A stretch of DNA of 64,000 nucleotides from Isurus oxyrinchus (taxonomy: Eukaryota): NCBI GenBank assembly GCA_026770705.1, contig JANJGN010000009.1, positions 164,114,001 through 164,178,000 of the forward strand, written 5' to 3'. Positions 6,721 through 45,600 of the stretch are shown here, piece by piece; the first letter of the stretch is position 1, and the number at the start of each line of letters is the position of its first letter. The notes under the pieces are model-generated. The model searched no databases. It saw only the letters and a program-made list of their open reading frames with translations, and was not told where the DNA came from. Both the position numbers and the translations under genes were made by a program.

Positions 6721-7032
6721 CAAAGATTAGTAAATAAAACCAAAATATTAAGAAATCTCTGTATTCAATTTGACAACTAAATTTCAGAAATGAAAAAAAT
6801 ACCTCTGTTCCTGTGGGGTTTGTGGAAATTGGGAGGGGGTTCCTGTTCTAAATCACTTCACAATTCAGTATAAATACTAGTTCAGCTCATCATTATCCAT
6901 ATGTTCTAACATTTTAACATTCTTGTTTTCAGGATTTTATATCCTTTCAATGAAAATTAGTTTAGTTCTTTTGTTAAATATAACTGACAGAAGTTCAAGT
7001 TCTCAGGGGTCAGATTTCATCAGCTGCCTTAA

Positions 7033-7075
7033 TGTGGTTTCATGACCTGGCTTCCTGCTATCTTCTTCCTCATTT
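7033..7075. promoter_or_regulatory. Putative proximal promoter: RUNX-like TGTGGTT plus two ETS/PU.1-like GGAA cores
   Basis: TGTGGTT at 7033-7039, CTTCCTG at 7051 and CTTCCTC at 7065 (GAGGAAG on minus), 100-140 nt before the ATG. The ETS cores are conserved in gene 2 (42468-42490). Motif match only. Confidence 0.4.
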
Positions 7076-7175
7076 AAATTCCTTGTATCATTTATATTAG
7101 ACAATTATTTCAACGTGAGAAACAAGAGCTGAGTGTCTGGAAACAAGTTCTGTCCTGATCTTTGTGAACAAAATG

Positions 7176-7212
7176 ATGTGGATTTTGATTCTCCTCATTA
7201 GTTCTCTGCCCG
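7176..7212 (+). CDS. Gene 1 exon 1, signal peptide MWILILLISSLP (extra in-frame ATG at 7173)
   Basis: ATG, hydrophobic run, then G|GTGAGT donor (phase 1). Joins VLGALWA of the V exon. Conserved at 42593. Confidence 0.85.
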
Positions 7213-10200
7213 GTGAGTGACAGCCAGAGCTGGATGTTCCGATATTCTGAGTTGGTTTAACTCTCGTGCGCTGGTTATACAGGAGATGTTTAAATATTTG
7301 GAGACATGCAAAGGCACAAGAGAGGTCTTGGGCACAGTGGGTAGTGTCTCTGTATCTGAGCCAAAAGCTCTGTGTTTGAGTCCCACTTCTGTTCTTGTTG
7401 AGAATGGAAGGCGCGTTCTAACCAGGACCAACAGATTGATTATCAACCTGAAAATCTTCCAACAGACCGAAGGCTGGTGGTAAGAGGGTTTAAGATCCCA
7501 GTCCAACATGTTTGATGTGGAGTGGTGCCGCTCATTCTGTTGTCTCCGGAGGTTAGTGACCTGTTCCAGGGAAAACAAGCTTTGGAAAGCAAAAGTAAAC
7601 ATGTGCTTTGTCTGCCGCATCCGTCTCTAGATGTGGGAAGTCTCCTAAGTCTAAAGGCACAAAATAGTCAGCAAAACCAAATGAGTAATAATTGTGAAGT
7701 ATTTTATTACCCTGTGAATTAACTATCACACCATGGGAATAGTTAACAAATAAACTGAACTGCATTATTAATTATGAATGATAAGTAAAGGAGAATTAAA
7801 TTTTCAGAATGCTATGCAAGCAACATTTTGAAAATGAAAACCTTTTTTAATTGGTAATTTTCAATATAATCTGATGTCCAGTATAGACTGAAGACTGCAG
7901 CGGTAATAATCCCACAAATAAAACATGTCCCAAGTTGGCGAATATTTCTGTTTTTTAAAGTACAGTTGATGAAATATTGTGTTATGAGGCTCTCTCAGTG
8001 ACACTGTTCCTCACTGGTAGATGGTTGGTCTACATCACTCTTCTCATAAGTAGCCTTTTCTTGTTCATTCTTTAACTTTAAGAAACTAGATTTTGCTCAT
8101 CACTCAGTATTGCCACCTCTCCATCATTTCGATGAATCTATTTTATAACACACAATGTTAAACTCCCAGCCCCATCTGCTCTTAACCACCTCCCCAAAAT
8201 AGTTTGTGCCTCTAGCTGATCAATTTAATGCAGAATACTCGATGTACTTATGGACAGGAAACTGAATCATGTTTCTGTCTGTTTGGCAATCTTCTTCTTT
8301 TCAATCCTTCCTCTTTCTGATCTGATCTCTTTCCCATTCCCTTTTCATCTGTAACTTTTCCTGTATCTTTTTCCTTTTCTTCACTTCTCTCTAGCCATTT
8401 AATTATTTTCAATCTCTCTTTTGTTATTTTAGTGCAAACTCTTTCCCCACAGCATGAGTTTCTCTCCCAGCAAGGCCATTGGTCTCATGAAAGTTCAAGT
8501 CAAGGCATCCAAATCCCTACCTCAGGAATCCATCCATACTGTAAGGCCACCTATCACACAACCTCGCAAACCTTCAAGACCTTCAAATCCTACCTTTGGA
8601 CATCCCTAACTCATTCAAGATCTGAACAACCCCTCCTGCAAGGACACAAACCTACCCCGCACCCCACCCATCTCAGATCAGAGCAGGGAACTGTCGGATC
8701 CTGTGACCCCCTCCACACTGCTCCCCAGCCGACTGCAAATCAGGCCTGTCAATCAGACTGGTTTCTGGCTGTGGAACCTCCTGATGATGTCAAACGCAGT
8801 CTAGGGTGAAACCCCAAAATATGAGGCAGAACCCCAATTTCCAGGTTCCCTCACTCTACCAGCCCCTGCCAATATGTCAAGAAAATGTCCCAATTATCTC
8901 ACGAGTATATCATTGTCTGAGACGTGCTTTGGAACCACAGTGAGGCTCTGATAAGTGTCTATATGAATGATTACTCTCATCACAAACTTGATGGAATTTA
9001 ACTCATTAAAATGCATCTGTTTGAATTAAACAGTTATTTCCTGTTCAATTCCTGAAATGTTCTCTCCTCAGTTTTAGGTGCATTGTGGGCAAAAGAGAGA
9101 GTAACAGGAGTTGTGGGAAGAGCGATCACAATAGAATGTCACTATGATGCATGGAGGTACAAGTCACATATAAAATATTGGTGTCGCGGCTGGACTCGCC
9201 AGTGTAATGTTGTAGCATCAACAAATAGGCCAAATGGAAGAATATCGGTCACAGATAACAAGTCACAAGGAATATTTATTGTTACTATGGAGGATCTTCA
9301 CTCAGGAGATACAGGATGGTACAGCTGTGGTATTGAAGCAACTGGCCACGATCCAATGTTTAATGTAAAGCTACAAATATCTTACGGTACATTTCTTACT
9401 GTTTTTCTTTATTACTCTCGACTGAAATGTCTGCTCAATGTTTTATCTGGGAGGAAACATGACAGCTCCGATATCCCGAGGCTCCACAGCAATGCAGAGT
9501 CTTAAAGGTAAAGGGCAGAGGTCGGGAAATCCGACTCATGTTACCCAAACCCAATTCATGGCCTGTCAAACATGTCAGAATTGAACGTTACAAGTGAACT
9601 AAACGGAAATTGAGAAGTTGTTTTGATGGTAAAAGAAGCCTCTTTATTAATTGTTGAGACATTGGGCTGGATATTCAGCCTCAAAGCGGGTAGGGGCAAT
9701 TCAGAAAATTCCCCGCTCGGCCTTGGAAGAAAGTGCCCACAAAGGTGGGATTCCCATTGCTGGGAGCTGTGCCCGGGCTGCAGTCTGGCCAGCCACACCA
9801 GGAAGAAATGCAGAGGCAGCCACAGGGGCTGCCGGCTGCGGAGACGGGCTGTTTAAAAGGCCCCTCCTTAATGCCCTTGGACTTTGTAACAGCTAAACTC
9901 AAAACACAAAGGCCCTTCACCCCTCACCCCTCACAGCCCCCAAAGGGGGTGGATGTGAGGGGAAAATTTGTCATGAGGGGGCTTGGAGGTGGGTGGAAGT
10001 GTACAGCTTGAAGTCAGGAGCATGAGGGGGTATAAGGCGTGGGTATAGGGATAGAGGGGGAACGAAGGGCCAAGCGGGTTGGATGGGGGTGTGACTTGAC
10101 ATAGCGGGCATGAGATGCACCTTTTGAACTTAGCTGTTAAAAGATCCCCTCATGCAGACCAGTGTTTACAGCTCCTCTGAGGGGCTTTGGACTACGACTC

Positions 10201-13200
10201 AATCAAAACCTGGCCCGAGTCCATGAAAATTGCAGAGGAGTCGGACGTCACTTTGGTCTGAAGGCTGCACAAAGCACAGGGTAGAGGCCCTGGACTAAGA
10301 CACCTGCCTTTATCTTGTACAGAAAGTGTTCACATGTGAGTGACATGAACATTGCTCATCAAAACAAGGAGCGATAGGCAGGGAGACATTCTTTGGAGTT
10401 TATTGACAATAATGAACAGTATGTACAAGTGATTAACACCCGTGCCCAGGACGTGAAACTACTTCTCCTCAACCACGCGGTGTCTGGCAGCACTGTTGAG
10501 ACCTTCTGTGCTCGGTGGGTGACCACGGGGGTTGGGGTCCTTTATCCAGCCTCTTAATCACATTTTGGTTTGATGTTGTAAGTGTCCTTTAAATCATGTC
10601 TTTGGTTTTGCAGTGACCCTAACTTAGGGGCTGCGTTTTATATTATCCCTCATTTTGTTAATTTAGTTTATTGGGTTGGCTTTAAAAGAGCTACATCTTC
10701 TCAACTTTCCTAATCCTCCCGCTACATCTTGGTGCTCCGCAGACATCCACAGTGGAGGTAAAGACAGTCTGCTGACTGCTATGCTCTGTCTGTGATAACT
10801 TTGGCGGGCATCCTCTGGAGGCCTGAGGCCTGGAGGGCCCCGGCTTCCTTTCGAGGTCCTACTGTGTGGCATTAGCACGCTCCTTGTCCTGTGGACTGGG
10901 AGCTGTCAAGGTCACAGTAAGAGGGGAGTTACCAGGATGAATGGCCCCGGAGGGTACACATGTTGATCCTTCTCGCTATGGGTACCCAATGGCCATTGGC
11001 TGAATCCTTGAGGAGCAGGTGTAGCTGGAGTGAGATCGAGCTGCCTGCACCCCTCTCGCATACACACTGTCAGGGGCCAACTATACATCAGCAATGGAGT
11101 TCAGCCCCGCAGCAGTGTAGGAACAATGCCCTGGACCAACGTCTCCATGGCAGCTGCCATCCTACCAGTGTTGACCTCGGTGCAGTGACATGCCGGCGCT
11201 ATCACCTCAGAGTGCAGGCGGATGGACTCCTCCATTGTGCCTTGCAATCTGAGGGGTGCAGCAGATATCCCTTCCTGATGTTCCCGCGTTGGCCTTTCCA
11301 GCTCCAGCAACTGTGACATGACCAAATCCAGAAACGCGTCACCTGACTCGAACTCAGCAAATTTATGGCCTCCAGCTGCCCACTGAGTGCCGGACACCTG
11401 GGAAGCCCCTGCCGCTGCCAGTTGTGGATCAGGCAGTGCAATTTGCTCACCAGCTGTGACCCTGAGTCTACTCTAAAGCTAGATCTCACCGAGGGGTGTG
11501 CCTCTGCACTGGTGGAGGGTGTGGGTGAGGGCAGTGATGGTACAGCAAGGAGGGTCCCTCCAGGTTCCTCTTCAGAGATTTCTTTGGGGATTACTTGGTG
11601 TCCCTGGTTCTCCATCGGCTGTTTCCCAGATGTGCGTGTGGAAGCAAGTGGAAATATTTTGTGCATGGCAGTGGCCTGTGAAACAGGACACATCACTCAC
11701 AGCATGGTTGTCTGATGGATGTTGCACTGCTGGACCCTCACTTGGCTGAGCACCGCAGACCTCACCGTCAGAACAGGATTGGTCCAGGCCGTTGCCGGCC
11801 AGCTGGATGGCTCTGTTTACAAAGTACTAGTACCGTTCAGGAACATGATGTTCATATTTTCATACATGTCGCTGAATTTGTCAGTCACATTTACGCCTCT
11901 ATTATCAACCAAAGAGCGGGATTGTCCCCGATTTGCACTAAGTGCGTTAGTGGGCGGGGGAATTGATGTTTTACCCACCGGCCACAATGGGGGGTTTTCA
12001 GGCCGCATCGTCCCAAACCCAACGCATTAGTTATGCATTCCCGGGAAACATACCATTTCCATGGTGAGTGGGATCTCATTCACCCCAAACACCATCATTT
12101 CACTGCTTCATCAGGCCCAGCACCATATGTAAAGTCCAGCCTCGTGCACACATCTCAGTGTTTCCAACCCAGGACCACTGCAGGGAAGATATCCCCAAGA
12201 GGCAAAAGGACTGTAGCTCCCAGGTTTAGTGAGCTGTCACTGCAACACATTGTGTACACTGTGGGGGCCCTGCTGTGATGTCCTCTACTCCCACTCTGGC
12301 TGCAGTATGGACAGCGCTGTGACCAACCAGGCCTGGGAGGCGGGGGCAGCGGTGGTCTACCCACTGAATTTTATTAAGTTAACCCTCACTGTCAGATAAT
12401 GTAGACAGTATGAAAAGTGTGGATGAGAAACCCTTAGAAACTGTCCTTGCTGGATGGAAACAAATACTGGAGAGATTGGAAATTTCTAAATGAAATGAGT
12501 GGATGCCTGATTGTTTTAGAGAATGAAATGCAGGTACAACAAATTTTTTAGGGATCTGAGGAGAGGGCTATCTTGCAATATGATGAAGTATAGAATATTG
12601 AGATTTTTAATTCAATTTGTTTCACACTTTTTGGTCACCATATTAACTGAAAATTTTATTTAAATGAGAGAAGGTCATCACCTAATCGTTTACTAATTGT
12701 GTTTAATTGTATGCAGTGGTGGCATTAATTGGTGATTCACTTGTGCACCTATAAACAGATGCAGACTGAAACTGCGGGTGGTGGATTTAATTAGAATCAC
12801 ACAGTAAACAGCACTTTAAAACAGTTCCACAAGTCTTAACCTATCTAACCTCAGAGCTAATCTTTCTCTTTTCCGTTCAGCAACTAACACTATAGATTTA
12901 AAAAGCTATAGAAGTCCAATAATTTTACCACACAGTGCTTTCACATTGGGGTGTCCACTGACAGCAACTGGGTCTTCAGATCTGGGCCTTGTTCACACTG
13001 TCTCCTGGGAATTCTGACCAGCTACCCTGCTGTCTTCAGGGAGATCTGGCCAACCATCCTGCTGTGTTCTGGGAGATCTAAGCAGCTACCCCCTCACATA
13101 GGCTTCAGTATTCCCTTAAATGTGTTTCTTCTCTTTCATCTCTCTTTGTTGAAACCAGTCTGTTCAGAAATGCTTTTATCCCAGGATTGATTAAATCAAT

Positions 13201-16200
13201 CTTCACTTTAATTCTTAGACTTGTAAAAACAAACGTACCCTATCTTTATGTCACTTCATGACACCTTTTTACAACCTGCATATATCCCCCTTTGAACTAA
13301 AACAACTTAATTCAAACTATTCCTGTTATTGCTTCATGTACAAATCTGTTGAAGTTCTTTTGTGTTCATTAACATATCAAAACCACTTCTTACTGTTGAC
13401 TTTTGACCCTATCCACTGATGAGGCAGTCCACGTCATGGAACCATAACCTTAAATCTGGAGATAGGCTCGTCAGGGATGTCGGGAAGCACTTCTTCACGC
13501 AAAGTATAGCGGAAATCAGGAACACTCTCCTCAAAAAAGCTCTTTCGCTCAATTGAAAATTTCAAAACTGATTGACAGATTTTATCTGGTAGCAATATTC
13601 GGGTTATGGGACCCAGGTAGGTAAATGGACAGAAGATACTGGTCAGTTGGGATTTAATTGAATTGTGGAACAGGCTGAAGGGGCTGCATGTCCGAATCCC
13701 TTTTCCATGTTCTGGAGCCCCAGTTAATTTTTCAGTGGTCTGGGCCTTGTGAGTAACAATGTGCTGTGAAACAAGCTCACAAACAGTTAGCATTTCAAAG
13801 AGACACTTTCCAATCACCAGGCAAACTGTGACCTGTGTTGTTTCAGAGTACAGTTTGTGACAGTGAAAGCAGTGAAGGCCTGCCAAACCTCACTAAAAAT
13901 GTTGGTGAAAGTGTCACTTTTCTCTGGCTAATCCCTTGATCAAAGAGGGAATTTTAATTCCCCTCCCCCATCCAGCATCGTGTTGAAGCATGATGGGATT
14001 TGCTGGATCCAGAACCTTCTCCAGCACGGCTTGTGATCCAGGAGACACACGAAAGCTTCACCCCCACCCCCAGGCAAATGTTTCATACAATTTCTCCCTC
14101 CCCATGATTGGCCAATCCTGCCCCAAGCAGCAAAGTCACCCTGACTCCCTCCTCGCTGCTGTGCTCCGAGGCAACATTCCCACCAATTTCCAAACTTTTA
14201 CCATAACGTTCCTACTTGGAAACCAGCCAAACATTCAATCAGTGTGCAAGAATTCTGGTAAGATTTTGCTGTTAAATTCAGCACAAACTCAACATTCCTG
14301 GTATTTCCAGCTTTCTCACCACCCCACACACAGTCCCCCCTCTCGTCTCCACGTACCAGGGTTGAAGTGTTCTATCGCAGCATGCAGAGAACCAGAGCCA
14401 ATCGCATTTACATTCTTATCCAAAGCCACAAAACATGTAACCGATATCTGACAACATTTTGCCCTCATTTTCCCCTTTGCTTTTCTAAGATTCTCTCCAA
14501 CTAATTCACATTCAACTCACAAACAATGAAACAGCATTGGAGGCTCACTACCAGCTACGAAGAGATATTGTTCACCATGATATTCATGTTAACATACTCT
14601 CAGTATCATAGCTGCTGTTCTGATCTGGAGACCTGATTTGTTCTGATATAATGGCTGAAAGGGTAACTCAGGCCTCTAAGAGGATGGAGAGATATGGGGA
14701 TGGATTTTTAAAAAGTATGCTATCAGGATTAGAGATGGGTGGGTGTGAAATTTGACACCGCTGGTCTCCATGCCAATTTACTGTTACAATCTCAAGCCCG
14801 AAACATTTAGAAAGCGAGCGGCTTGCAGTCAAGTGGTGGGCAGCTAACTTAGGAAATAACATTTACCAAAGGGGCCAATTAAAGACCCATTCCTGCACCC
14901 ACTGGGATTTCATTCAGCAATGATAGCAGACCACATTGCCCCTTCAGGATCATGGCCCGGCAGTTGCCGGGTTTTGAAACATAAAATAAACTTACCTGGA
15001 CTTTCCCCTTGCTGTCTCCATGCTCAGGTCAGCAACTCCCACCTCACCTGGTGAGGCCCTCTAGCATCAGGAGCCCGCCCACTGTCCCTGATTGGGTGGT
15101 GAGCCCAGTTCCAGGCTTTTGATTGGCTGGAACATTGAAAATTGTATTGGGCATGCCTAAAGAATGGTGAATGGTGTCAGGACCTGAAACTATCTCCCAT
15201 GTCCAGTTCGCAAACCCAAATTTAACATCCACCCCATAGAGTGGTAGATGTGTTGGTGAGATTCCAACATGACAGAGCCTGGCTGAGATGAAGTGCAAAG
15301 TTTGAAGAGTATTTGATTATTAAATGTTCAGTATCTGAATGTTTCTTTCTTTCCAACAGAACCCGTGTCTGTTCCTGTGCTTAGATTTTCATCACCACCA
15401 CATGTCTCATGTTCTGGTGGTTCAGTGTCCGACTCCTGTGAGTCTGTCCAGGGATCCCTTCCCATTCAGTACACATGGTATGAAAAGACCCTGTCTGAAG
15501 ATTCAAAGATCTCTGACACCAATAAACTGGATCTACATTGTCAATCCTTCAAACAGCAACATCATCAATATTACTGCACAGCCTCAAATAATCAGGGAGA
15601 AAAATCCAGTGACACTGTCACTGTTAACTTAACACTCATGAATGTAACAACGAAAAGCTGCAGTTATGTGATACAAATTGGAAACATTGGTAAGTGTTAC
15701 TTTCTACAAACAATGTGGCGAATGAATGTTTTAAATTCATGTCTATCCAAACTGGTCACTGATTCAGTTCCTTCAGTTTATCTGAGAAATTGCAACTGGC
15801 CAAATTCACTCTCTCTGGTTCCTCAAACATTCTGAACAAGGTCACTAAGTTGCATTTTTCATGAAAAATGGACAGGATCATAAAATATCCCCAAAACATG
15901 CAAAAATATTGCCGAATCTCCAACAAATCCATCGAATCAAAATAGCATTTGATTGACAGAGCTTTCATAAAGCAATTTGTCTATTTCCAGCAGATGGAAT
16001 TGTGAAATGCAACCTCCAACTGTTGTGTCCTAGTTTGGGAAGGATATCACTGATAGAATAGAGAAGAATTGAATTAAAATGAACCCTTGGATGAGAGGCT
16101 TTAGTCATGAGGAAAGTATCATCACAACTGAGGTGAATGACCAGCTGGAGGGCGTGGAAATTGTTAGAAATTTGGATAAGGTAACTCTAACTATTTCCAC

Positions 16201-19200
16201 TAGTCAGTGAGTCAACAACAAGAGAGCATTAACTTTAAAATTATCACTAAAAGGACAAAGGGAGAAATTTGGAGAATTTTATTGATGCAAACTGTTTTTA
16301 GGACATGGAATGCCCAACTGAAATAAGTTTACAAACAAATTTAATAATAGATTTTAAAAGGGAAACAAATGTATGAGGGTGTGGGAAAAGGACAATGAAA
16401 TGGAATTAAATGAGGAGATCATTCAGAGAACCAGCATTGGAGCGATGGGCTGAATTCCCTCCCCTGTGTTGTAAAAATTCCATCACTCCAGACAAAATCT
16501 CAACTTATCCTGTATAAAAAATTAACTATTCCTTCCCCATAAAACAATGACCCTGGTTCTGAAACAAGGAGGACTTTAGCCTATTTGAATGTAGCGGTTC
16601 AATTTTCTGCAGAGTGGGTGCAGCATGTTCACCGAGAAACACCAACATGGGCACAAAACAAAGAGAATCACATTTTCCCCTGAGCAGCAGGAGACAGGAA
16701 TTTACATATGCAAATATATTGACTCTGGTCATGTGGTCTCTTGCCTCAGTTGTCAGGGAAGAAGGGTGGAATTTTACACCCCCATTGCGGCAGGGACTGG
16801 GCTGTAAAATGCAGCCAGCCATTCTAAACTCCATGCACTCCAGCAGGACCATAAAATCCCACTGTCACAAGCCTCAGACCAAAGGCTGTCAGCAGCAGGT
16901 AGAAATTACACCTGTAAACTGTGTTTGTACTGGAGTTGTCAGCAGGGACTCAGTCGCACTCTGACCTTTGATGACAGTATTTTGTAGGTTCAAGTTTCCC
17001 TTAAGAGTTAAAATTCAGGCTGATACCACTGTCCAGCACTGAGGTAGTGCTATACTGGTGGTGGTGCTGCTGTGTAGATGAGGTGTTAAACTGAGGATCC
17101 ACATCCCCCTTAGGTAGATGTAAACAATTCCAGGGTATTATTCACAGAATAGGGAAGTTCTCCTGGTGTCCTTGAAGCCTTTATTCCTCAACCAATACAC
17201 ACAAATAGGGAGCAGGAGCAGGGTATTTGGTCTTTTGAGCCTGTTAATGTCACTACAAAACAGATCATCTAGTGAATGTTTTACTGATGTTTGTGGGGCT
17301 TTGTTATGTACGAATTAACTTTCACGTTTTCCGATATTAAAACTGTGGCTTTACTTCAGAAAAGTACTTCATAGGCTCTGAAGCACTTTGGGATATCTCA
17401 AGGTTGTGAAAGGTGATGAATCAACACAACTGATTTCTTACCTTTTGAAACAAACGATTTATTAAAATACATCTGAACCATATGCAAACTGGAGGGGGGG
17501 GAGGGGGAGGGAGGAGCCAGTCCCAGCAGCAAGGTGGGTCATTATTTTTAAATGGACAGAAAATCACTGGCAGGTTTGAGACATTCAGCATCAGTGGGTG
17601 AAGATTCCCATCTTTACTGCAAGCTCAGAAAACTGCCCCCAAAGGACAGAAAGTGACCATTGCCAGTATTTGGATGTGACTGTTTAATGTGTTCACATGA
17701 AATTCTTGTCAAGAAAGTGTATCTCTGATTGTAGTCCACCAACCTGAGCACTTACCTGGCCCACTTCTAACTCTGTCCCACCAACTCTCAGATATAGGAA
17801 AGAAAGTGGAATTACCAGTAAAGATAGACCACCAGGTATCAGCAAACTCTCCACTTGTGACCAGAGAGGGGTAAATTACACAGAAATCAATTCTACCAGC
17901 CAGTCTTTTCCTCAATTAATGAGGTTCCATTTGACAATGATGCTCTCTCAGTTGAATACAAGTGAAAATGAGGTGAATCTCAATGTTATTCTCTTGTTTC
18001 AACAGGACCTGAGTATTGTTACGAAGCTTGTACAACAGTATCACCAACTATCACACAACCCAGGAACGCAGTTGGGAATCCCAGAATTAGGACACATCCG
18101 CCATTTTTAAAGGGCTCTTGAATCAACCCAAGTTGGTGAAATCCAGGCCGTCACTTTGGTCTGAAGGCTGCACAAAGCACAGGGTAGAGGTCCTGGACTG
18201 AGACACCTGCCTTTATCTTGTACAGAAAGTTTTCACATGTGAGTGACATGAACATTGCTCATCAAAACAAGGAGCGATAGGCAGGGAGACATTCTTTGGA
18301 GTTTATTGACAATAATGAACAGTATGTACAAGTGATTAACACCCGTGCCCAGGACGTGAAACTACATCTCCTCAACCAGGCGGTGTCTGGCGGCACCGTC
18401 GAGACCTTCTGTGCTCGGTGGGTGACCATGGGGGGTTGGGATGCTTTATCCACCCTCTTAATCACACTTTAGTTTGATGTTGTAAGTTTCCTTTAAATCC
18501 TGTCTTTGGTTTTGCAGTGACCCTAACTTAGGGGCTGCGTTTTATTTTGTCCCTCATTTTGTTAATTTAGTTTATTTGGTTGACTTTAAAAGAGCTACAT
18601 CTTCTCAACTTTCCTAATCCTCCCGCTACATCTTGGTGCTGCACAGACATCCACAGTGGAGGTAAAGACAGTCTGCTGACTGCTATGCTCTGTCTGTGAT
18701 AACTTTGGCGGGCGTCCTCTGGAGGCCTGAGGCCTGGAGGGCCCCGGCTTCCTTTCGAGGTCCTACTGTGTGGCATTAGCACCCTCCTTGTCCTGTGGAC
18801 TTGGAGCTGTCAAGGTCACAGTAAGAGTGGAGTTACCAGGATGAATGGCCCCAGAGGGTACACATGTTGATCCTTCTCGCTATGGGTACCCAATGGCCCG
18901 TGTCTGAATTCTTGAGGAGCAGGGGTAGCTGGAGTGAGATCGAGCTGCCCGCACCCCTCTCACATACACACTGTCAGGGGCCAACTATGCATCAGCAATG
19001 GAGTTCAACCCCACAGCAGTGTAGGAACGGTGCCCTGGACCAACGTCTCCATGGCACCTGCCATCCTACCAGTGTTGACCTTGGTGCAATGACATGCCAG
19101 CGCTATCACCTCAGAGTGCAAGTGGACGGATTCCTCCATATTAACTGAAAATTTTATTTAAAAAGAGAGAAGGTCACCATCTAATCCTTTATTAACTGTG

Positions 19201-22200
19201 TTTAATTGTATGCAGTGGTAGCATTAAACAGATGTCTTCAGGTCTGGGCCTTGTACACACTGTCTCCTGGGAGTTCTGACCAGCTACCCTGCTGTCTTCA
19301 GGGAGATCTGGCCAACCATCCTGCTGTGTACTGGGAGATCTAAGCAGCTACCCCCTCACATAGGCTTCAGTATTCCGTTAAATGGATTTCTTCTCTTTCA
19401 TCTCTCTTTGTTGAAACCAGTCTGAAAAGAAATGCTTTTTTCCCAGGATTGATTAAATCAATCTTTACCTCTTAAACTTGTAAAAACAAACTTACCCTAT
19501 CTTTATGTCAATTCCTTACACCTTTTTACAACCTGCATAAAGCTCCCTTTGAACTAAAACACTCAATTCAAACTATTCCTGTTATTGCTTCATGAACTAA
19601 TCTGTTGAAGTTCTTTTTTGTTCATTAACATATCAAAACAACTTCTTACTGTTGACTTTTGACCCTACCCACTGATGAAGCAGTCCACGTCATGGAACCA
19701 TAACCTTAAATCTGGAGATAGGCTCGTCAGGGATGTCAGGAAGCACTTCTTCACGCAAAGTATAGTGGAAATCAGGAACACTCTCCTCAAAAAAGCTCTT
19801 GAACTTAAATGAAAATTTCAAAACTGAATGACAGATTTTATCTGGTAGCAATATTCGGGTTATGGGACCCAGGTAGGTAAATGGACAGAAAATACTGGTC
19901 AGTTGGGATTTAATTGAATTGTGGAACAGGCTGAAGGGGCTGCATGTCCGAATCCCTTTTCCATGTTCTGGAGCCCCAGTTAATTTTTCAGTGGTCTGGG
20001 CCTTGTGAGTAACAATGTGCTGTGAAACAAGCTCACAAACAGTTAGCATTTCAAAGAGACACTTTCCAATCACCAAGCAAACTGTGACCTGTGTTGTTTC
20101 AGAGTACAGTTTGTGACAGTGAAAGCAGTGAAGGCCTGCCAAACCTCATTAAAAATATTGGTGAAAGTGTCACTTTTCTCTGGCTAATCCCTTGACCAAA
20201 GAGGGAATTTTAATTCCCCTCCCCCATCCTGAATCCAGTTGAAGCATGATGGGATTTGCTGGATCCAGAACCTTCTCCAGCACGGCTTGTGATCCAGGAG
20301 ACACACGAAAGCTTCACCCCCACCTCCAGGCAAATGTTTTATACAATTTCTCCCTCCCCATGATTGGCCAATCCTGCCCCAAGCAGCAAAGTCACCCTGA
20401 CTCCCTCCTCGCTGCTGTGCTCCGAGGACAAATTCCCACCAATTTCTCCCATGTCCAGTTCCCAAACCCAAATTTAACATCCACTCCATAGAGTGGTAGA
20501 TGTGTTGGTGAGATTCCACCATGGCAGAGCCTGGCTGAGATGAAGTGCAAAGTTTGAAGAGTATTTGATTATTAAATGTTCAGTATCTGAATGTTTCTTT
20601 CTTTCCAACAGAACCCGTGTCTGTTCCTGTGCTTAGATTTTCATCACCAGCAAATGTCTCATGTTCTGCGGGTTCAGTGTCCGTCTCCTGTGAGTCTGTC
20701 CAGGGATCCCTTCCCATTCAGTACACATGGTATGAAAAGACCCTGTCTGAAGATTCAAAGATCTCTGACACCAAGAAACTGGATCTACATTGTCAATCCT
20801 TCAAACAGCAACATCATCAATATTACTGCACAGCCTCAAATAATCAGGGAGTAAAATCCAGTGACACTGTCACTGTTAACTCAACACTCATGAATGTAAC
20901 AACGAAAAGCTGCAGTTATGTGATACAAATTGGAAACATTGGTAAGTGTTACTTTCTACAAACAATGTGGCGAATGAATGTTTTAAATTCATGTCTATCC
21001 AAACTGGTCACTGGTTCAGTTCCTTCAGTTTATCTGAGAAATTGCAACTGGCCAAATTCACTCTCTCTGGTTCCTCAAACATTCTGAACAAGGTCACTAA
21101 GTTGCATTTTTCATGAAAAATGGACAGGATCAGAAAATATCCCCAAAACATGCAAAAATATTGCAGAATCTCCAACAAACCCATCGAATCAAAATAGCAT
21201 TTAATAGACAGAGCTTTCATAAAGCAATTTGTCTATTTCCAGCAGATGGAATTGTGAAATGCAACCTCCAACTGTTGTGTCCTAGTTTGGGAAGGATATC
21301 ACTGATAGAATAGAGAAGAATTGAATTAAAATGAACCCTTGGATGAGAGGCTTTAGTCATGAGGAAAGTATCATCACAACTGAGGTGAATGACCAGCTGG
21401 AGGACGTGGAAATTGTTAGAAATTTGGATAAGATAACTCTAACTATTTCCACTAGTCAGTGAGTCAACAACAAGAGAGCATTAACTTTAAAATTATCACT
21501 AAAAGGACAAAGGGAGAAATTTGGAGAATTTTATTGATGCAAACTGTTTTTAGGACATGGAATGCCCAACTGAAATAAGTTTACAAACAAATTTAATAAT
21601 AGATTTTAAAAGGGAAACAAATGTATGAGGGTGTGGGAAAAGGACAATGAAATGGAATTAAATGAGGAGATCATTCAGAGAACCAGCATTGGAGCGATGG
21701 GCTGAATTCCCTCCCCTGTGTTGTAAAAATTCCATCATTCCGGTCAAAATCTCAAATTATCCTGTATAAAAAATTAACTATTCCCTCCCCATAAAACAAT
21801 GACCCTGGTTCTGAAACAAGGAGGACTTTAGCCTATTTGAATGTAGCGGTTCAATTTTCTGCAGAGTGGGTGCAGCATGTTCACCGAGAAACACCAACAT
21901 GGGCACAAAACAAAGAGAATCACATTTTCACCTGAGCAGCAGGAGACAGGAATTTACATATGCAAATATATTGACTCTGGTCATGTGGTCTCTTGCCTCA
22001 GTTGTCAGGGAAGAAGGGTGGAATTTTACACCCCCATTGCGGCAGGGACTGGGCTGTAAAATGCAGCCAGCCATTCTAAACTCCATGCACTCCAGCAGGA
22101 CCATAAAATCCCACTGTCACAAGCCTCAGACCAAAGGCTGTCAGCAGCAGGTAGAAATTACCCCTGTAAACTGTGTTTGTACTGGAGTTGTCAGCAGGGA

Positions 22201-25200
22201 CTCAGTCGCACTCTGACCTTTGATGACAGTCTTTTTTAGGTTCAAGTTCCCCTTAAGAGTTAAAATTCAAGCTGATACCACTGTCCAGCACTGAGGTAGT
22301 GCTATACTGGTGGTGGTGCTGCTGTGTAGATGAGGTGTTAAACTGAGGATCCACATCCCCCTTAGGTAGATGTAAACAATTCCAGGGTATTATTCACAGA
22401 ATAGGGAAGTTCTCCTGGTGTCCTTGAAGCCTTTATTCCTCAACCAATACACACAAGTTGGGAGCAGGAGCAGGCCACTTGGTCTTTTGAGCCTGTTAAT
22501 GTCACTACAAAACAGATCATCTAGTGAATGTTTTACTGATGTTTGTGGGGCTTTGCTGTGTATGAATTAACTTCCACGTTTCCTGATATTAAAACTTTGG
22601 CTTTATTTCAAAAAAGTACTTCATAGGCTCTGAAGCACTTTGGGATATCCCAAGGTTGTGAATGGTGATGAATCAACACACATTGTTTCTTACATTTTGA
22701 AACAAACGATTCATTAAAATACATCTGAACCAATTATCTGAGTGCAAACTGGAGGGGGGTAAGGGGAGGGAGGAGCCAGTCCCAGCAGCAAGGTGGGTCA
22801 TTATAATTAAATGTTCAGAAAATCACTGGCAGGTTTGAGACATTCATGGTCAGTGGGTGAAGATTCTCATCTTTACTGCAAGCTCAGAAAACTGCCCCCA
22901 AAGGGCAGAAAGTGACCATTGCCAGTATTAGGATGTGACTGTTTAATGTGTTCACATGAAATTCATGTCAAGAAAGTGTATCTCTGGATTGTAGTCCACC
23001 AACGTGAGCCCTTAACTGGCCCACTTCTAACTCTGTCCCACCAACTCTCAGATATAGGAAAGAAAGTGGAATTACCAGTAAAGATAGGTCACCACCAGGT
23101 ATCAGCAACCTCTCCACTTGTGACCAGAGAGGGGTAAATTACACAGAAATCAATTCTACCAGCCAGGCTTTTCCTCAATTAATGAGGTTCCATTTGACAA
23201 TGATGCTCTCTCAGTTGACTACAAGTGAAAATGAGGTGAATCTGACTGTTATTCCCTTGTTTCAACAGGACCGGAGTATTTTTGTGAAGATTCTGCAACA
23301 GTATCACCAACTATACATTTGACAAGTACAGATATAATTTCCACTACCAGTCGATCCACACCTTCAGATCCCGAAAATCCTGAAAGGTACAATGTTCTCA
23401 TGGATTGGCACTGCTTCCATATGTGAGAGATACGATTGGCCAAAGGAGTGAAAGTTGTTCATTAATTTGGAAAGTAGCTCATCAGAATGGAAATGGTGGC
23501 TGGGTTTATATCATGCTGTTGTGTTAGCTTCTTAATGAGGGTGCATTTTTCTGTTGGAAAATACAAGCAAGGAGTGAGCTTTTCCATTGTGTTGCCGCTC
23601 AGATGGTGTTTTTAGCCTTATTCACCTGAATTACTTCACCGCTAAGGTAACCTCACAGTGTGTGAGGAGTTGTACTTGTCAAACTTACCTTGCTGCTGTC
23701 TACACTGACAGAGTACTTGTATTACGGCTGATGAAAAGGAAGAATTAGCGTGATATATCTGCACATCCATTGGTTTCACTAATGAGAGACATCTTGCAGC
23801 TCTGGTCCCGCTTCCATATGATTAGCCTGAGCTGTCAACAATAAGTAGCAGAAATTGTAGTCCGATGTAAACACTCAGGAACCGGGTCTTTGAAGTTACA
23901 ATGGTGATAAAGAGAAAACGCCAACTAAATGTCAAACAGAAAGAGGGACAGTTGGAAATGGACAGCAGGTATGTCCGCAGCTGTGGAGAAAATAAACACG
24001 TTCATGGTTTGGGTGCAGACACTTCTTCAGAATTCTAGTCCACACACGAAGCGAAGCAGGTCCACTCACCCCACAGATCCCAACTGAGCTGCTGAATGTT
24101 TCCAGAATCTTCTGTTTTCCATTCATATTTCTAGCACATGCAGTGCTCTTACTTTTATCCAGATTATTGTCAATGATTTAAAAAGTATTGAAAGTCTATG
24201 GTCTGAATTTTCCGCTTGGCGGGGGTGGGGCTGGGGTAGAGCGGGAGCGAGCACGGGCAGCTGTGGACCCGTTCGCCATCCACCATCGGGTTTTTGACGC
24301 CATTTTGCGCGGGCGGCCAATTTAGGCCATCCCAGCGTATTTCCCGACTCCCGAGGATAGCGGGAGTGGGCGAGCAGCGGGGGGTGTGCACAGACAACCG
24401 GGTCCAATGGTGACCCAGCGGCCTGTTTAAATGAAGGCCTGGCAGCCTGTTCCAGCTGCTCACAATGGCCAGTGCAAAGAATTTTCACTTACAATTTAGC
24501 TTAGTATTACAGTTAGACATTATGGACATGCTAAAGAAATTTGCTTCGTTTGATTTTTATCTAATGATCATGAAGTTGATAAGTAAAACTTTAGCTGATT
24601 CTTTCAGCTAAAGTCCCTTGTCTACTTTATGTTGCTGCAAAAAATTACAGTGTAAAGCGGAGAGTCATGTTTCAAAAATGAAACAGTCTCATTTCATTTA
24701 AATGGTTTGATATTTCTTCTCTTTTGCTCAGTTACATTATCTGGGATGTGATACGTTGGGTGCTCTTTACTCTCCTGGTGATTTGTGCTGTTTCAGGCAC
24801 ATGGTGTACGAGAAAATCTAAGGTGAGAGTTATGGACTGTATAAGAATCATTATGGGCAGTTTGCAATGTTATGATGTGGCAGATGATGTGTGTCAGGCA
24901 GACCAAATCCGCAAGTGAAACTTGGTCGAGCTGTCACAACGGTTTTGCAATTTATATTTATTATGAGATGCATGCACTGAATTCAGACACCATAAGTCTA
25001 CCAAACTTTTAGAGATTTAAAAAATATATCGTTAAATATATTTATTAGCAAAAGATAGATTTCAATTACATACATAAGTCTACTAATTTCTTCTATAATA
25101 ACTCGTAAAATTCCTAATTAGCCTCACTCCCAGTTACACCTCCTTTAAGGCAACTGTACAAAGAATAGATATTAGGTTTCAAGCAGATCCAGCAAATTGA

Positions 25201-28200: not shown

Positions 28201-28638
28201 ACCAGGGATGATTGTTTTTCAACAAGAACACAAGGAGACGTAAAATTATACAGACTGCAACAGGAGACTGAGATACAGACCCAAGAGAATTGTTACTGGA
28301 AGCAGCAATTGCACTGTATAAAATATATTTAATAAAGTAGCCACAGCAATCAATTTCTACCCATAACACCAGTTGCAGGGGAACATTAGTTACCCATGAG
28401 AAAATGATGTTACATCTCTTCAAGAGGGGCACAACTGATAACTTTTCCCAGCACACATGCAATGGGTGAGGAGTGTGATGTTGCCACAGCTCCAGCTCAT
28501 CACAAGCTTTGCCTCGATTTGTTGGCATAGCCAGAATTCTGTTCACATGTAAAATAATGCATCGTTCTCAGTCTCAATTAATCTGGTGATTTTCTGTTCC
28601 AGACACTCAACGAATCAAATCCTCACAGCTTGACCTAA
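7176..28638 (+). CDS. Gene 1: CD300/TREM/pIgR-family (MDIR-like) activating-type Ig receptor, L-V-C2-C2-stalk-TM-short tail, ~418 aa; exons 7176-7212, 9072-9386, 15360-15689, 20612-20941, 23269-23386, 24732-24822, 28603-28638
   Basis: All introns are GT-AG with compatible phases (1,1,1,1,2,0). The joined CDS is 1257 nt and open. AATAAA at 28746. The model requires skipping the broken stalk exon at 18006. Confidence 0.82.
7322..7560 (+). mobile_element. tRNA-derived SINE, degenerate (copy at ~42739-42975)
   Basis: A-box-like GGCACAGTGG and B-box-like GTTTGAGTCC at tRNA-like spacing. The 3' end is approximate. Confidence 0.5.
9072..9386 (+). CDS. Gene 1 Ig V-set domain exon (CD300/pIgR-like)
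   Basis: TIECHY...KYWCRGWTRQC...DTGWYSCG: canonical B/F cysteines plus the extra Cx6C pair typical of CD300/TREM/pIgR V domains. Acceptor tcctcag, donor G|gtacat. Confidence 0.93.
10247..11830 (-). mobile_element. PIF/Harbinger internal fragment (3' exons of Myb/SANT-like gene); shorter copies at ~18148-19138 and ~51309-53435
   Basis: Colinear similarity to 30600-31940 of the TIR-bounded Harbinger element (MSQLLEL.RQ.REHQEG motif). Confidence 0.75.
10473..10690 (+). mobile_element. Tx1-clade LINE 3' fragment with 14-bp TSD (duplicated copy 18376-18594)
   Basis: Matches the ORF2 end and 3'UTR at 52480-52695. Flanked by ctacttctcctcaa / ctacatcttctcaa. Confidence 0.8.
11915..12360 (+). mobile_element. 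PIF/Harbinger 5' fragment with the start of the Myb/SANT-like ORF
   Basis: GKRTVAPRFSELSL...DVLY. Terminus resembles the reverse complement of 32700-32771. Confidence 0.55.
15360..15689 (+). CDS. Gene 1 Ig C2-type domain exon, copy a
   Basis: EPVSVPVL...SCESVQGSLPIQYTWY...YYCTASN. Acceptor ttccaacag, donor G|gtaagt, 330 nt, phase 1-1. Confidence 0.9.
16030..16475 (+). mobile_element. Old CR1 3' fragment (copies ~21280-21725, ~56735-57180)
   Basis: Degenerate 3' end including gatgggctgaa. Confidence 0.5.
16935..17440 (+). mobile_element. DeuSINE (SacSINE1/AmnSINE-like); copies ~22187-22690 and ~57640-58145
   Basis: Resembles the Deu-domain consensus as recalled (ctgaggtagtgct...gatgaggtgttaaactgagg...aaagtacttcat..gaagcactttggga). 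B-box-like gttcaagt upstream. Confidence 0.68.
18006..18051 (+). pseudogene. Truncated stalk exon (GPEYCYEACTTVSPT) broken at the internal duplication junction
   Basis: Acceptor ttgtttcaacag is intact and the first 46 nt match the exons at 23269/58718. The sequence then switches to intronic DNA found at ~51210. There is no native donor. Confidence 0.85.
18050..23314 (+). repeat. Intragenic duplication block (intron + C2 exon + intron) in gene 1
   Basis: Repeats ~10250-18051 with internal deletions. Its 5' end matches unit 2 from ~51210. Confidence 0.9.
20612..20941 (+). CDS. Gene 1 Ig C2-type domain exon, copy b
   Basis: Near-identical to 15360-15689 with intact splice sites, 330 nt, phase 1-1. 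Confidence 0.9.
23269..23386 (+). CDS. Gene 1 stalk exon (GPEYFCEDSATVSPTIHLTSTDIISTTSRSTPSDPENPES)
   Basis: Acceptor ttgtttcaacag, donor AG|gtacaa. Phase 1-2 fits the TM exon. Ser/Thr/Pro-rich. Confidence 0.85.
24200..24488. mobile_element. GC-rich MITE-like insert, Harbinger-type terminus (copy 59647-59936)
   Basis: Starts GGGTCTGAATTTTCC in the unit 2 copy, similar to the Harbinger TIR. Abrupt GC/CpG-rich block in an AT-rich intron. Confidence 0.45.
24732..24822 (+). CDS. Gene 1 transmembrane exon (YIIWDVIRWVLFTLLVICAVSGTWCTRKSK)
   Basis: Polypyrimidine acceptor ttttgctcag, hydrophobic helix followed by basic RKSK, donor AAG|gtgaga. Confidence 0.9.
24868..25792. mobile_element. Solo-LTR-like element just 3' of the TM exon (copy 60316-61240)
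   Basis: TGTTATGA...TCATGACA termini. Flanks gcaa / gtaa form a 4-bp TSD with one mismatch. Confidence 0.6.
25901..26790 (+). mobile_element. PIF/Harbinger fragment (Myb/SANT-like exon 1 and intron); copy at ~61350-62250
   Basis: Starts GGGCAGAAT like the TIR. Degenerate AWEMVAAVVSANALLKRTATQ..KRMN. Confidence 0.65.
26810..28040 (-). mobile_element. CR1 LINE fragment, endonuclease region (copy ~62260-63490)
   Basis: ADELTAQIEIYGYDLIAMTETWLQGDQDWEFNIQGY...GGGVALLI. Confidence 0.85.
28603..28638 (+). CDS. Gene 1 terminal coding exon (TLNESNPHSLT*)
   Basis: Acceptor ttttctgttccag in phase 0, TAA at 28636-28638, AATAAA ~110 nt downstream. Confidence 0.68.
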   Translation, partial: TLNESNPHSLT

Positions 28639-33910: not shown

Positions 33911-34068
33911 GGTGGTCTCTACTGGATTCTACTGGACTCATCAGAAATCCAGTAGGGATTCCAGTTGCTTCAGCTAAATTGAGCTGGAACCACAGCACCT
34001 GTTCCCAATTGGACTAGGAGTCAGAGAGGGACAATGCAAGAACTGGGGCATAAACTCTCATTCAGTGG

Positions 34069-42135: not shown

Positions 42136-42592
42136 ATCTACAAAGATTAGCAAATAAAACCAAAATGTTAAGAAATCTCTGTATTCAATTTGACAACTAA
42201 ATTTCAGAAATGAAAAAAATACTTCTGTTCCTGTGGGGTTTGTGGAAATTGGGAGGGGGTTCCTGTTCTAACTCACCTCACAATTCAGTATCAATACTAG
42301 CTCAGCTCATCATTATCCATATGTTCTAACATTTTAACATTCTGGTTTTCAGGATTTTATATCCTCAATGAAAATTAGATTTGTTCTTTTGTTAAATATA
42401 ACTGACAGAAGTTCACGTCCTTAGGGCCAGATTTCATCAGATGCCTTAATATGGCTTCATGACCTGGCTTCCTGCTATCTTCTTCCTCATTTAAATTCCT
42501 TGTATCATTTATATTAGACACTTACTTCGATGTGAGAAACAAGAGCTGAGTGTCTGGAAACAAGTTCTGCCCTGATCTTTGTGAACAAAACG

Positions 42593-42629
42593 ATGTGGAT
42601 TTTGATTCTCCTCATTAGTTCTCTGCCCG
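42593..42629 (+). CDS. Gene 2 exon 1, signal peptide
   Basis: ATGTGGATTTTGATT...CCCG|gtgagt. Confidence 0.85.
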
Positions 42630-45600
42630 GTGAGTGACAGCCAGAGCTGGATATTCCGACAATCTGAGTTGGTTTAACTCTCGTGCGCTGGTTATACAGC
42701 AGATGTTTAAATATTTGGAGACATGCAAAGGCACAAAAGAGGTCTTGGGCACAGTGGGTTGTGTCTCTGTATCTGAGCCAGAAGCTCTGTGTTTGAGTCC
42801 CACTTCAGTTCTTGTTGAGAATGGAAGGCGCGTTCTAACCAGGCCCAACAGGTTGATTATCAACCTGAAAATCTTCCAACAGACCGAAGGCTGGTGGGAA
42901 GAGGGTTTGAGATCCCAGTGCAACATGTTTGATGTGGAGTGGTGCCGCTCATTCTGTTGCCTCCGGAGGTTGTGACCTGTTCCAGGGAAAACAAGCTTTG
43001 GAAAGCAAAAGTAAACATGTGCTTTGTCTGCCGCATCCGTCTCTAGATGTGGGAAGTCTCCTAAGTCTAAAGGCACAAATTAGTCAGCAAAACCAAATGA
43101 ATAATAATTGTGAAATATATTATTACCCTGTGAATTTACTATCACACCATGGGAATAGTTAACAAATAAACTGAACTGCATTATTAATTATGAATGATAA
43201 GTAAAGGAGAATTCAATTTTCAGAAATCTATGCAAGCAACATTTTGAAAATGAAAACCTGTTTTAATTGGTAATTTTCAATATAATCTGATGTCCAGTAT
43301 ACACTGAAAACTGCAGCGGTAATAATCCCACAAATAAAACATGTCCCAAGTTGGCGAATATTTCTGTTTTTTAAAGTACAGTTGATGAAATATTGTGTTA
43401 TGAGGCTCTCTCAGTGACACTGTTCCTCACTGGTAGATGGTTGGTCTACATCACTCTTCTCATAAGTAGCCTTTTCTTGTTCATTCTTTAACTTTAAGAA
43501 ACTTGATTTTCCTCATCACTCAGTATTGCCACCTCTCCATCATTTTCAATGAATGTATTTTATAACACACAATGTTAAACTCCCAGCCCCATCTGCTCTA
43601 AGCCACTACTTTAACTTCCGCAAAATATTTTGTGCCTCTAGCTTATCAATTTTATGCAGAATACTTGATGTACTTATGGACAGGAAACTGAATCATGTTT
43701 CTGTCGGTTTGGCAATCTTCTTCTTTTCAATCCTTCCTCTTTCTGATCTGATCTCTTTCCCATTTGCTTTTCAACTGTAACTTTTCCTGTATCTTTTTCC
43801 TTTTCTTCACTTCTCTCTAGCCATTTAATTATTTTCAATCTCTCTTTTGTTATTTTAGTGCAAACTCTTTCTCCACAGCATGAGTTTCTCTCCCAGCAAG
43901 GCCATTGGTCTCATGAACGTTCAAGTCAAGGCATCCAAATCCCTACCTCAGGAATCCATCCATCCTTCAAGGCCACCTATCACACAACCTCTCAAACCTT
44001 CAAGGCCTTCAAATCCTACCTATGGACATCCCTAACTCATTCAAGATCTGAACACCCCCTCCTGCAAGGACACAAACCTACCCCGCACCCCACCCATCTC
44101 AGATCAGAGCAGGGAACTGTCGGCTCCTGTGACCCCCTCCACACTGCTCCCCAACCAACTGCAAATCAGGCCTGTCAATCAGACTGGTTTCTGGAACCTC
44201 TTGATGATGTCATACGCAGTCTGGGGTTAAACCCTACAGTATGGGGCAGAACCTCAATTTCCAGGTTCCCCACACTCTACCAACCCCTGCCAATAAGTCA
44301 AGAAAATGCCCCAAATATCTCACAAGTAAATCATTGTCTGAGACGTGCTTTGGAACACAGTGAGGCTCTGATAAGTGTCTATATGAATGATTACTCTCAT
44401 CACAAACTTGATGGAATTTAACTCATTAAAATGCATCTGTTTGAATTAAGCAGTTATTTCCAGTTCAGTTTCTCAAATGTTGTCTCCTCAGTTTCAGGTG
44501 CATTGTGGGCAAAAAAAGAAGTAACAGGAGTTGTGGGAAGAGCGATCACAATAGAATGTCACTATGATGCACGTTACAAGTCACATATAAAATATTGGTG
44601 TTGCGGCTGGAGTCGCCAGTGTAATATTTTAGTATTGAAAAATCAGCAAAATGGAAGAATATCGATCACAGATAACAAGGCAACAGGAATATTTATTGTT
44701 ACTATGGTGGATCTTCACTCAAGAGATACAGGATGGTACAGCTGTGGTATTGACAAACCTGGCCTCCTCGATTCAATGTTTGCTGTCTGGCTACAAATAT
44801 CTTACGGTACATTTCTTACTGATTTTCTTTATTATTCTCAACTGAAATGTCTGCTCAATGTTTTATCTGGGAGGAAACATGACAGCTCCGATATCCCGAG
44901 GCTCCACAGCAATGCAGAGACTTAAAGATAAAGGGCAGAGGTCGGGAAATCCAACTCATGTTACCCAAACCCAATTCATGGCCTGTCAAACATGTCAGAG
45001 TTGAACTTTACAAGTGAACTAAACGGAAATTGAGAAGTTGTTTTGATGGTAAAAGAAGCCTCTTTATTAATTGTTGAGACATTGGGCTGGATATTCAGCC
45101 TCAAAGCGGGTAGGGGCAATTCGGAAAATTCCCCGCTCGGCCTTGGAAGAAAGTGCCCACAAAGGTGGGATTTCCATTGCTGGGAGCTGTGCCCAGGCTG
45201 CAGTCTGGCCAGCCACACCAGGAAGAAATGCAGAGGCAGCCACAGGGACTGCCGGCTGCGGAGACGGGCTGTTTCAAAGGCCCCTCCTTAATGCCCTTGG
45301 ACTTTGTAACAGCTAAACTCAAAACACAAAGGCCCTTCACCCCTCACCCCCCACAGCCCACAAAGAGGGTGGGTATAAGGGGAAAATTTGTCATGAGAGT
45401 TCTTGGAGGTGGGTGGAAGTGTACAGCTTGAAGTCAGGAGCATGATGGATTATAAGGCGTGGGTAAAGGGACATAGGGGGCATTAACGGCCAAACGTGAT
45501 GGATGAGGATGTGACTTGACATAGGGGGCATGAGATGGACCTTTTGAACTTAGCTCTTAAAAGGTCCCCTCATGCAAACCAGTGTTTACAGCTCCTCTGA

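Follow-up and report, generated by a model that had tools for sequence, protein, structure and literature searches.

Locus and receptor array

The present study concerns a 64,000-nucleotide stretch of the genome of the shark Isurus oxyrinchus (the window; contig JANJGN010000009.1, hereafter C9, positions 164,114,001 to 164,178,000, in an assembly of 4.98 Gb), and in particular gene 1 of this window, a receptor gene with two C2-type immunoglobulin (Ig) exons and a broken stalk exon between them. All 34 C2 matches from a protein search of the assembly lie on C9, within 163.13-164.27 Mb. The array studied here (C9:163.24-164.30 Mb; 1.06 Mb) covers 32 of these 34 matches and holds 30 V exons spaced ~35 kb apart. 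Its genes are labelled g00 to g29, gene 1 and gene 2 of the window being g25 and g26, respectively. In sixteen array genes, an arginine-bearing transmembrane (TM) exon is followed by a short tail; in 14, the tail carries tyrosine motifs (ITYAAV and VIYSGV-type). The array therefore comprises paired receptors, both activating and inhibitory.

Among the 120 matches listed for the C2 exon, only shark and ray proteins are found, white and basking shark being the closest (83-86% identity among these matches). The C2 domain is 65% identical to skate MDIR3 and MDIR5, and its closest solved structure is FCRL5. The V exon belongs to Pfam V-set (E=1.2e-10) and is 56% identical to the V domains of skate MDIR5 (E=1e-35). 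The array thus has CD300/pIgR- and MDIR-related V domains, MDIR-homologous C2 domains and a multigene set of activating and inhibitory members, all of them MDIR features. The window sits in an array of ~30 MDIR-family paired receptors, with CD300/pIgR-like V and FCRL-like C2 domains.

Gene 1 has the layout V-C2a-(stump)-C2b-stalk-TM. Both C2 exons are 330 bp long, of phase 1-1, and bounded by AG/GT sites. We call gene 1 upstream of the junction at 18049/18050 block 1, and gene 1 from 18050 on block 2. The features of both genes, in window coordinates, are as follows.

7000..12500, + strand: 5′ segment near-identical to g14/g27/g29 (0-1 differences per 250 bp to the nearest of the three)
7173..7212, + strand: signal-peptide exon of gene 1 (ATG...CCG, then a GTGAGT donor)
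9078..9386, + strand: V-set Ig exon of gene 1, CD300/pIgR-like (Pfam V-set; MDIR5 similarity)
15360..15689, + strand: C2a, the additional C2 exon (FCRL-like, of phase 1-1), with GAC (Asp) instead of Val at codon 24 (15431)
17250..18048, + strand: left flank of the junction; groups with the V-less array fragment g06 (clade 100/100)
18006..18050, + strand: stalk-exon stump with intact acceptor, broken at 18049/18050 (read contig 17962-18079)
18006..18238, + strand: candidate poison pseudo-exon (predicted), with the stump acceptor, an in-frame TGA at 18119-18121 and the cryptic donor CAT/GTGAGT at 18239
18050..20611, + strand: V-C2 intron of the downstream partner, with 1406- and 237-bp L-group deletions and a 1004-bp deletion as in six S genes
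20612..20941, + strand: C2b exon, with the normal Val24; closest solved structure FCRL5
23269..23386, + strand: complete stalk exon, 118 bp
24732..24822, + strand: transmembrane exon with Arg, YIIWDVIRWVLF..., of the activating type, like skate MDIR5
28603..28638, + strand: short cytoplasmic exon with stop, without a tyrosine motif
42590..60270, + strand: gene 2, a single V-C2 paralog of the L lineage with an Arg TM exon; its last exon lies just beyond the window

The V exon of gene 1 has two in-frame acceptors 6 nt apart, at 9072 and 9078.

A junction within the stalk exon

The broken stalk exon starts at 18006 with its acceptor intact and reads CCAACTAT, whereupon the sequence continues CACACAACC. 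This continuation (18050-18363) is 98.1% identical to the V-C2 intron of gene 2 (51210-51523). A 118-base read contig from run X1 spans 17962-18079 with no differences; it passes 18050 by only 29 bases (31 with the AT overlap, against a bridging rule of 31 bases), and the read support comes from this one run, possibly the assembly's own sample. Furthermore, a second copy of the junction is present in g13 (C9:163,705,854), 426 kb upstream, the sole other full-length match among 40 scored candidates. Over the core, g13 and gene 1 differ at 73/10,554 sites; there are no differences in 17917-18893, an indel of 334 bp lies at 23750, and the 5′ halves differ. The junction is genuine and not assembly noise, and the first-pass annotation of the window, which had the stalk exon joined to V-C2 intron sequence at ~18050, was right in this respect. 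In runs X5, X9 and X13, from a second organism, no contig covers 17936-18049, although contigs cannot show absence; X9 has a contig with an unfused flank at 18050. The junction contig has a depth of 54 and an array-wide contig one of 838, a ratio compatible with about two copies; as depth does not measure copy number, it was left unused.

An assembly artefact, i.e., a mis-join or haplotypes set in tandem, seems hardly credible as the source of the structure or of its second copy. Five other gene pairs of the array (g08/g20, g09/g22, g11/g24, g14/g27, and g16/g21) differ by just 0.08-0.24%, as allelic haplotigs might, and the bridging contig is short and may stem from the sample that was assembled. 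Against an artefact, the junction is found in read-derived contigs, and the two copies differ in the sites, indel and 5′ halves given above while both carry a private Asp24 in C2a. The five pairs may represent a very recent block duplication or haplotypes placed in tandem. In view of their closeness, alleles are also conceivable for gene 1 and g13, which may be either paralogs or mis-tandemised alleles. Even as alleles, the two would attest a real junction, present on two chromosomes.

The AT microhomology noted at the joint in the first-pass annotation is present, but it is uninformative because most stalk exons would give an overlap of 1 bp and because longer overlaps are common by chance. 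The stalk codons at the break are ACT-ACA in 24 of 27 intact stalk exons (including g06), corresponding to a 1-bp overlap, and ACT-ATA in three (block 2 among them), corresponding to 2 bp. By the standard formula, an overlap of at least 2 bp is expected in ~16% of random joints. In-register non-allelic homologous recombination would place the break in long homology or a shared repeat; what we found instead is a 1-2 bp overlap between stalk exon and intron.

Indel markers of the two blocks

The array genes can be sorted by 5′ type (L or S) and tail: seven are L with a tyrosine motif, three L with Arg-TM, 11 S with Arg-TM, and three S with a tyrosine motif. A three-way alignment of block 1, block 2 and gene 2 revealed a 1406-bp gap (block 1 11232-12637) common to block 2 (19135-8) and gene 2 (53431-5), which bears out the ~1.4-kb deletion previously ascribed to these two and not to block 1. 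The repeat into which this gap falls runs through unbroken in block 1 (10691-11818 versus 30812-31945), and the gap has CCAT at either end; it is therefore a derived deletion. Both second blocks (those of gene 1 and g13), ten L genes, and g04 carry it. The alignment has a further gap of 237 bp in block 2 and gene 2, as well as insertions in gene 2. A 1004-bp gap is found in block 2 alone among the three and resembles that of six S genes of the array, and block 2 is without the 1.15-kb and 150-bp insertions of the L genes. Since block 2 combines L-type and S-type deletions, indels have moved between lineages. The informative sites of the alignment are patchy and near balance, with 108 setting block 1 apart, 79 block 2, and 86 gene 2.

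Block 2 begins with 96 bp (18050-18145) that are missing from block 1. Such a segment of ~100 bp absent upstream had been reported in the first-pass annotation; its presence holds, its value as a signature of gene 2 does not. The outgroup g03 retains 190 bp missing from block 1 (deletion at ~10245), and the deletion state of block 1 is common to 14 S genes. The 96 bp mark no donor because they are ancestral DNA, kept in g03 and lost in 14 genes. They were accordingly ruled out as a gene-2 marker, the outgroup carrying them as well.

Ancestry of the two blocks

In the tree of the V-C2 intron, the S clade includes block 1 (99/97, 100/99), and block 2 stands outside this clade on a branch of its own. 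The 800 bp left of the junction form a clade with g06 (100/100), from which they differ at 17/798 sites versus 48/798 from block 2. The right flank is near the L group; the nearest paralogs thus differ across the junction. Approximately unbiased (AU) tests, whose groups were named from the first-pass hypothesis with the free trees seen beforehand, rejected a clade of block 1 and block 2 in 18400-19135 (p=0.0006), 19234-20140 (p=0.0005), and 17250-18048 (p=0.0008). Hence, in three of the four segments compared, the sequences point to different array lineages as the sources of the two blocks. The earlier view of gene 1 as a chimera rather than a simple self-duplication fits this result, with the correction that gene 2 is not the partner.

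A clade of block 2 with the gene-2 lineage (L) is present or not rejected in two of the four segments and rejected in the other two. As donor of block 2, gene 2 was ruled out by the distances (35/718, 39/907, 32/1501, and 35/806 sites; 2.1-4.9%) and the AU tests, and it is a relative only. g04, which has block-2-like indels, was rejected as a direct parent, as it differs at 35/733, 44/907, 31/1499, and 58/804 sites. We did not find a hybrid with both parents identifiable and gene 2 as one of them; block 2 is a branch of its own.

The 5′ segment at 7000-12500, near-identical to g14/g27/g29 and unlike g13, is by this comparison a recent 5′ swap (crossover). Gene 1 is a mosaic of at least four pieces. 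To describe it as exon shuffling caught in progress, as the first-pass annotation did, is an overstatement, since the junction is already in two genes, which have diverged by 0.75% across the 10.5-kb core, and later exchanges have been patched in. Near 23,800 there were hints of a change of ancestry, from tyrosine-motif-type to Arg-type, but the picture is mixed at finer scale, and we do not claim such a change.

Prospects of the extra domain

Shuffling of Ig domains by symmetric (phase 1-1) exons is a known process, and a 330-bp exon of this phase permits in-frame addition. Joined in order, the signal-peptide, V, C2a, C2b, stalk, TM, and tail exons of gene 1 give an open frame of 417 aa; skipping C2a gives 307 aa. 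To that extent the in-frame, longer receptor proposed earlier is conceivable. That it would be made is doubtful in view of two features overlooked at first, Val24Asp in C2a and the stump with its acceptor, stop, and cryptic donor. The range then assigned to the event (18006..23386) also needs correction: it begins at the stump, and the extra module comprises C2a, intron, and stump (~15360-18050).

C2a keeps its cysteines and Trp, yet both copies, in gene 1 and g13, have Asp at residue 24, found in 2 of the 28 array exons compared. Among 207 homologous domains (those that fit a pattern, of 264 C domains detected with a profile), this residue is Val in 166, Ile in 25, Met in 9, Leu in 4, Ala in 2, Gly in 1, and Asp in none; not one carries a charge there. 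Residue 24, which precedes the first Ig cysteine by two positions, is aligned with the Leu in "VTLHC" of FCRL5; judging from how strand B is generally built in Ig domains, it presumably faces the core. Val24Asp is predicted to destabilise C2a. The pair Pro13-His14, with its sequon loss, was tried as a sign of decay and set aside as a natural variant, occurring in homologs such as basking-shark proteins.

The stump retains the acceptor to which C2 normally splices. Entered from C2a, the frame stops at 18119 after 264 aa, and no in-frame donor before this stop scores better than 4/9. Downstream, CAT/GTGAGT at 18239, in a high-copy repeat, matches the consensus at 8/9 positions (6-8/9 for the gene's six true donors). 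With its stop 117 nt upstream of the end, the resulting stump exon of 233 nt would be a predicted substrate for decay. Exonisation of repeats is known to yield poison exons, and an exon that contains a stop can arise where an orphan acceptor is paired with a GTGAGT from a repeat. Three transcripts are predicted. V-C2b, with C2a skipped, would encode a normal activating receptor of 307 aa; V-C2a-stump would run into the stop and lead to decay or to a secreted piece of 264 aa; V-C2a-C2b would encode 417 aa with a destabilised middle domain.

The last of these would be the product if the same paralog fusion had yielded a working V-C2-C2 activating receptor of longer reach, with C2a spliced to C2b. 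We hold this to be possible but doubtful. The 417-aa frame is open with all sites canonical, the exons are intact in both copies, and adjacent C-C domains occur in 8 of the 120 homologous protein models. However, five of these eight models are labelled isoforms, and in seven the adjacent domains are only 52-63% identical, hence old. Val24Asp, shared by both copies and absent from the 207 other domains, also speaks against such a receptor, as does the native stump acceptor, which lies between the two C2 exons and is followed after 233 nt by an 8/9 donor. Alternatively, the orphan stalk acceptor and the repeat-derived donor could act as a splice switch: one outcome would be a membrane-bound activating receptor, either V-C2 or V-C2-C2, the other a secreted V-C2 decoy of 264 aa or a transcript prone to decay. 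Two copies of the arrangement persist, with identical sequence around the junction for ~1 kb; still, we regard a switch as quite improbable. If true, it would be a dated case of a new regulatory exon that arose through fusion within an exon.

Origin of gene 1

The explanation that we favor, with somewhat better than even confidence, is that a non-homologous junction within the stalk exon linked the 5′ part of one MDIR-type gene with the 3′ part of another paralog, and that C2a is decaying or skipped. One end-joining event with a 1-2 bp overlap could have made this junction. The simplest route would be a ~30-kb deletion between head-to-tail neighbours, although an out-of-register exchange would leave the same junction and be indistinguishable from it. 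The upstream partner would have been g06-like, and the downstream partner would have come from a lineage without an intact representative in the 1.06 Mb examined. Crossovers and conversions may then have exchanged the 5′ half for another, made the blocks more alike in part (15700-17200), and given rise to the second copy of the gene.

Several points weigh against this explanation. In 15700-17200, a clade of the two blocks was not rejected (AU test, p=0.46), and the blocks differ at 19/1501 sites versus 30-34/1501 to gene 2 or g27. Our reading of this exception is later conversion between blocks 5.25 kb apart; self-duplication predicts the same closeness, however, and this segment is the best evidence for it. 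As indels move between lineages, the flanks, too, may have been exchanged after a self-duplication. With respect to decay, neither copy of C2a contains a stop or frameshift, each retains the splice sites and the two Ig cysteines, and the other unusual residues of the domain, Pro13-His14, recur in basking-shark proteins. Besides, the burial of residue 24 is taken from the strand-B pattern and not from a model, and splice-site strength is a consensus count only.

The self-duplication in question would be an internal tandem duplication of ~7.8 kb whose copies were then overwritten piecewise through crossovers and gene conversion from other paralogs. The ACT-ATA allele that gives the 2-bp overlap occurs in block 2 itself (one of the 3/27 exons), and 5′ replacement is demonstrably common in the array. 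Nevertheless, the 800 bp left of the junction group with g06 and stand 48/798 from block 2, three segments reject the clade, and at least two more exchanges near the junction would be required. We therefore consider self-duplication unlikely.

Other members of the array

The V domain of gene 2 is identical to that of tyrosine-motif genes such as g07 and g08, and the same ectodomain is therefore combined with opposite predicted signalling. The V-C2 intron of gene 2 contains a 5.4-kb nested retroelement-type insertion (window 45669-51150) with reverse-transcriptase-like fragments and a CCAGGTTGG target duplication; ten L genes share it, and g04 has a 4.2-kb form. An inverted block at C9:163.40-163.47 Mb holds g04, g05, and g06, of which g06 is without signal-peptide and V exons; one tail motif here is IADAAV in place of ITYAAV. 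Divergent members, some of which may be pseudogenes, lie at C9:163,254,000-163,366,000: g00 is V-C-V-C and its first C2 is without a donor at the usual place, g01 has a V match 4 bp longer, and g02 is V-only with a TM exon of 92 bp. A tandem repeat at 34060-35350 of the window, which recurs between array genes, is open for >300 codons on both strands (Ser/Thr/Ala-rich or Pro/Gln-rich).

Discussion

The MDIR of the clearnose skate were reportedly described by Cannon et al. in 2006. According to PMC3031540, MDIRs form a multigene family with activating and inhibitory members and are relatives of CD300, TREM, and pIgR. The shark genes resemble them in C2 (65%) and V (56%) identity, the MDIR5-type Arg TM, the multigene organization, and variable domain number. 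Indeed, the 120 homologous protein models listed fall into 25 architectures, including V-C (32), V-C-V-C (29), and up to nine V-C repeats, although these models are gene predictions, some long ones of which merge neighbouring genes. In contrast to gene 1, MDIR5 is V-C-V-C and MDIR3 is V-V-C-V-C, and the family mostly repeats the V-C pair. Gene 1 doubles C2 alone, with copies ~94% alike and the broken-stalk-exon junction still visible. The literature searched, which did not extend to the original MDIR paper, gave no description of this shark array, and an earlier description is possible.

A further parallel is KIR. According to PMC2816608 and PMC7516082, KIR hybrid genes arise by deletion between tandem neighbours, and an Ig exon can be kept but skipped (lineage III exon 3). 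As far as these accounts go, KIR genes, too, stand head to tail as paired receptors, and deletions among them join adjacent genes and reassort the parts for binding and signalling. In contrast to gene 1, however, the KIR fusions in these accounts come about in register, by homologous events within Alu/MaLR repeats, and leave the exon structure intact, whereas the fusion in gene 1 is out of register, inside a coding exon, with a 1-2 bp overlap and an added exon. Since the break fell in an exon and not in an intron, an orphan acceptor was left behind, unlike in clean intronic shuffling.

Gene 1 is probably a real hybrid gene, not a new-born one, with a decaying extra domain. This domain is likely a decaying by-product of ordinary gene-array shuffling rather than the mark of a new, longer receptor. 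Because hybrid genes are known from KIR and variation in domain number is widespread in MDIR-type homologs, gene 1 is a neat case and no surprise. It provides a base-resolved example of how MDIR domain number can vary, namely by out-of-register end joining inside an exon, and the likely cost of this mid-exon route is an orphan acceptor and a drifting domain. Moreover, ~30 paired receptors that swap ectodomains between Arg-TM and tyrosine-motif tails make the array a good system for paired-receptor evolution in cartilaginous fish.

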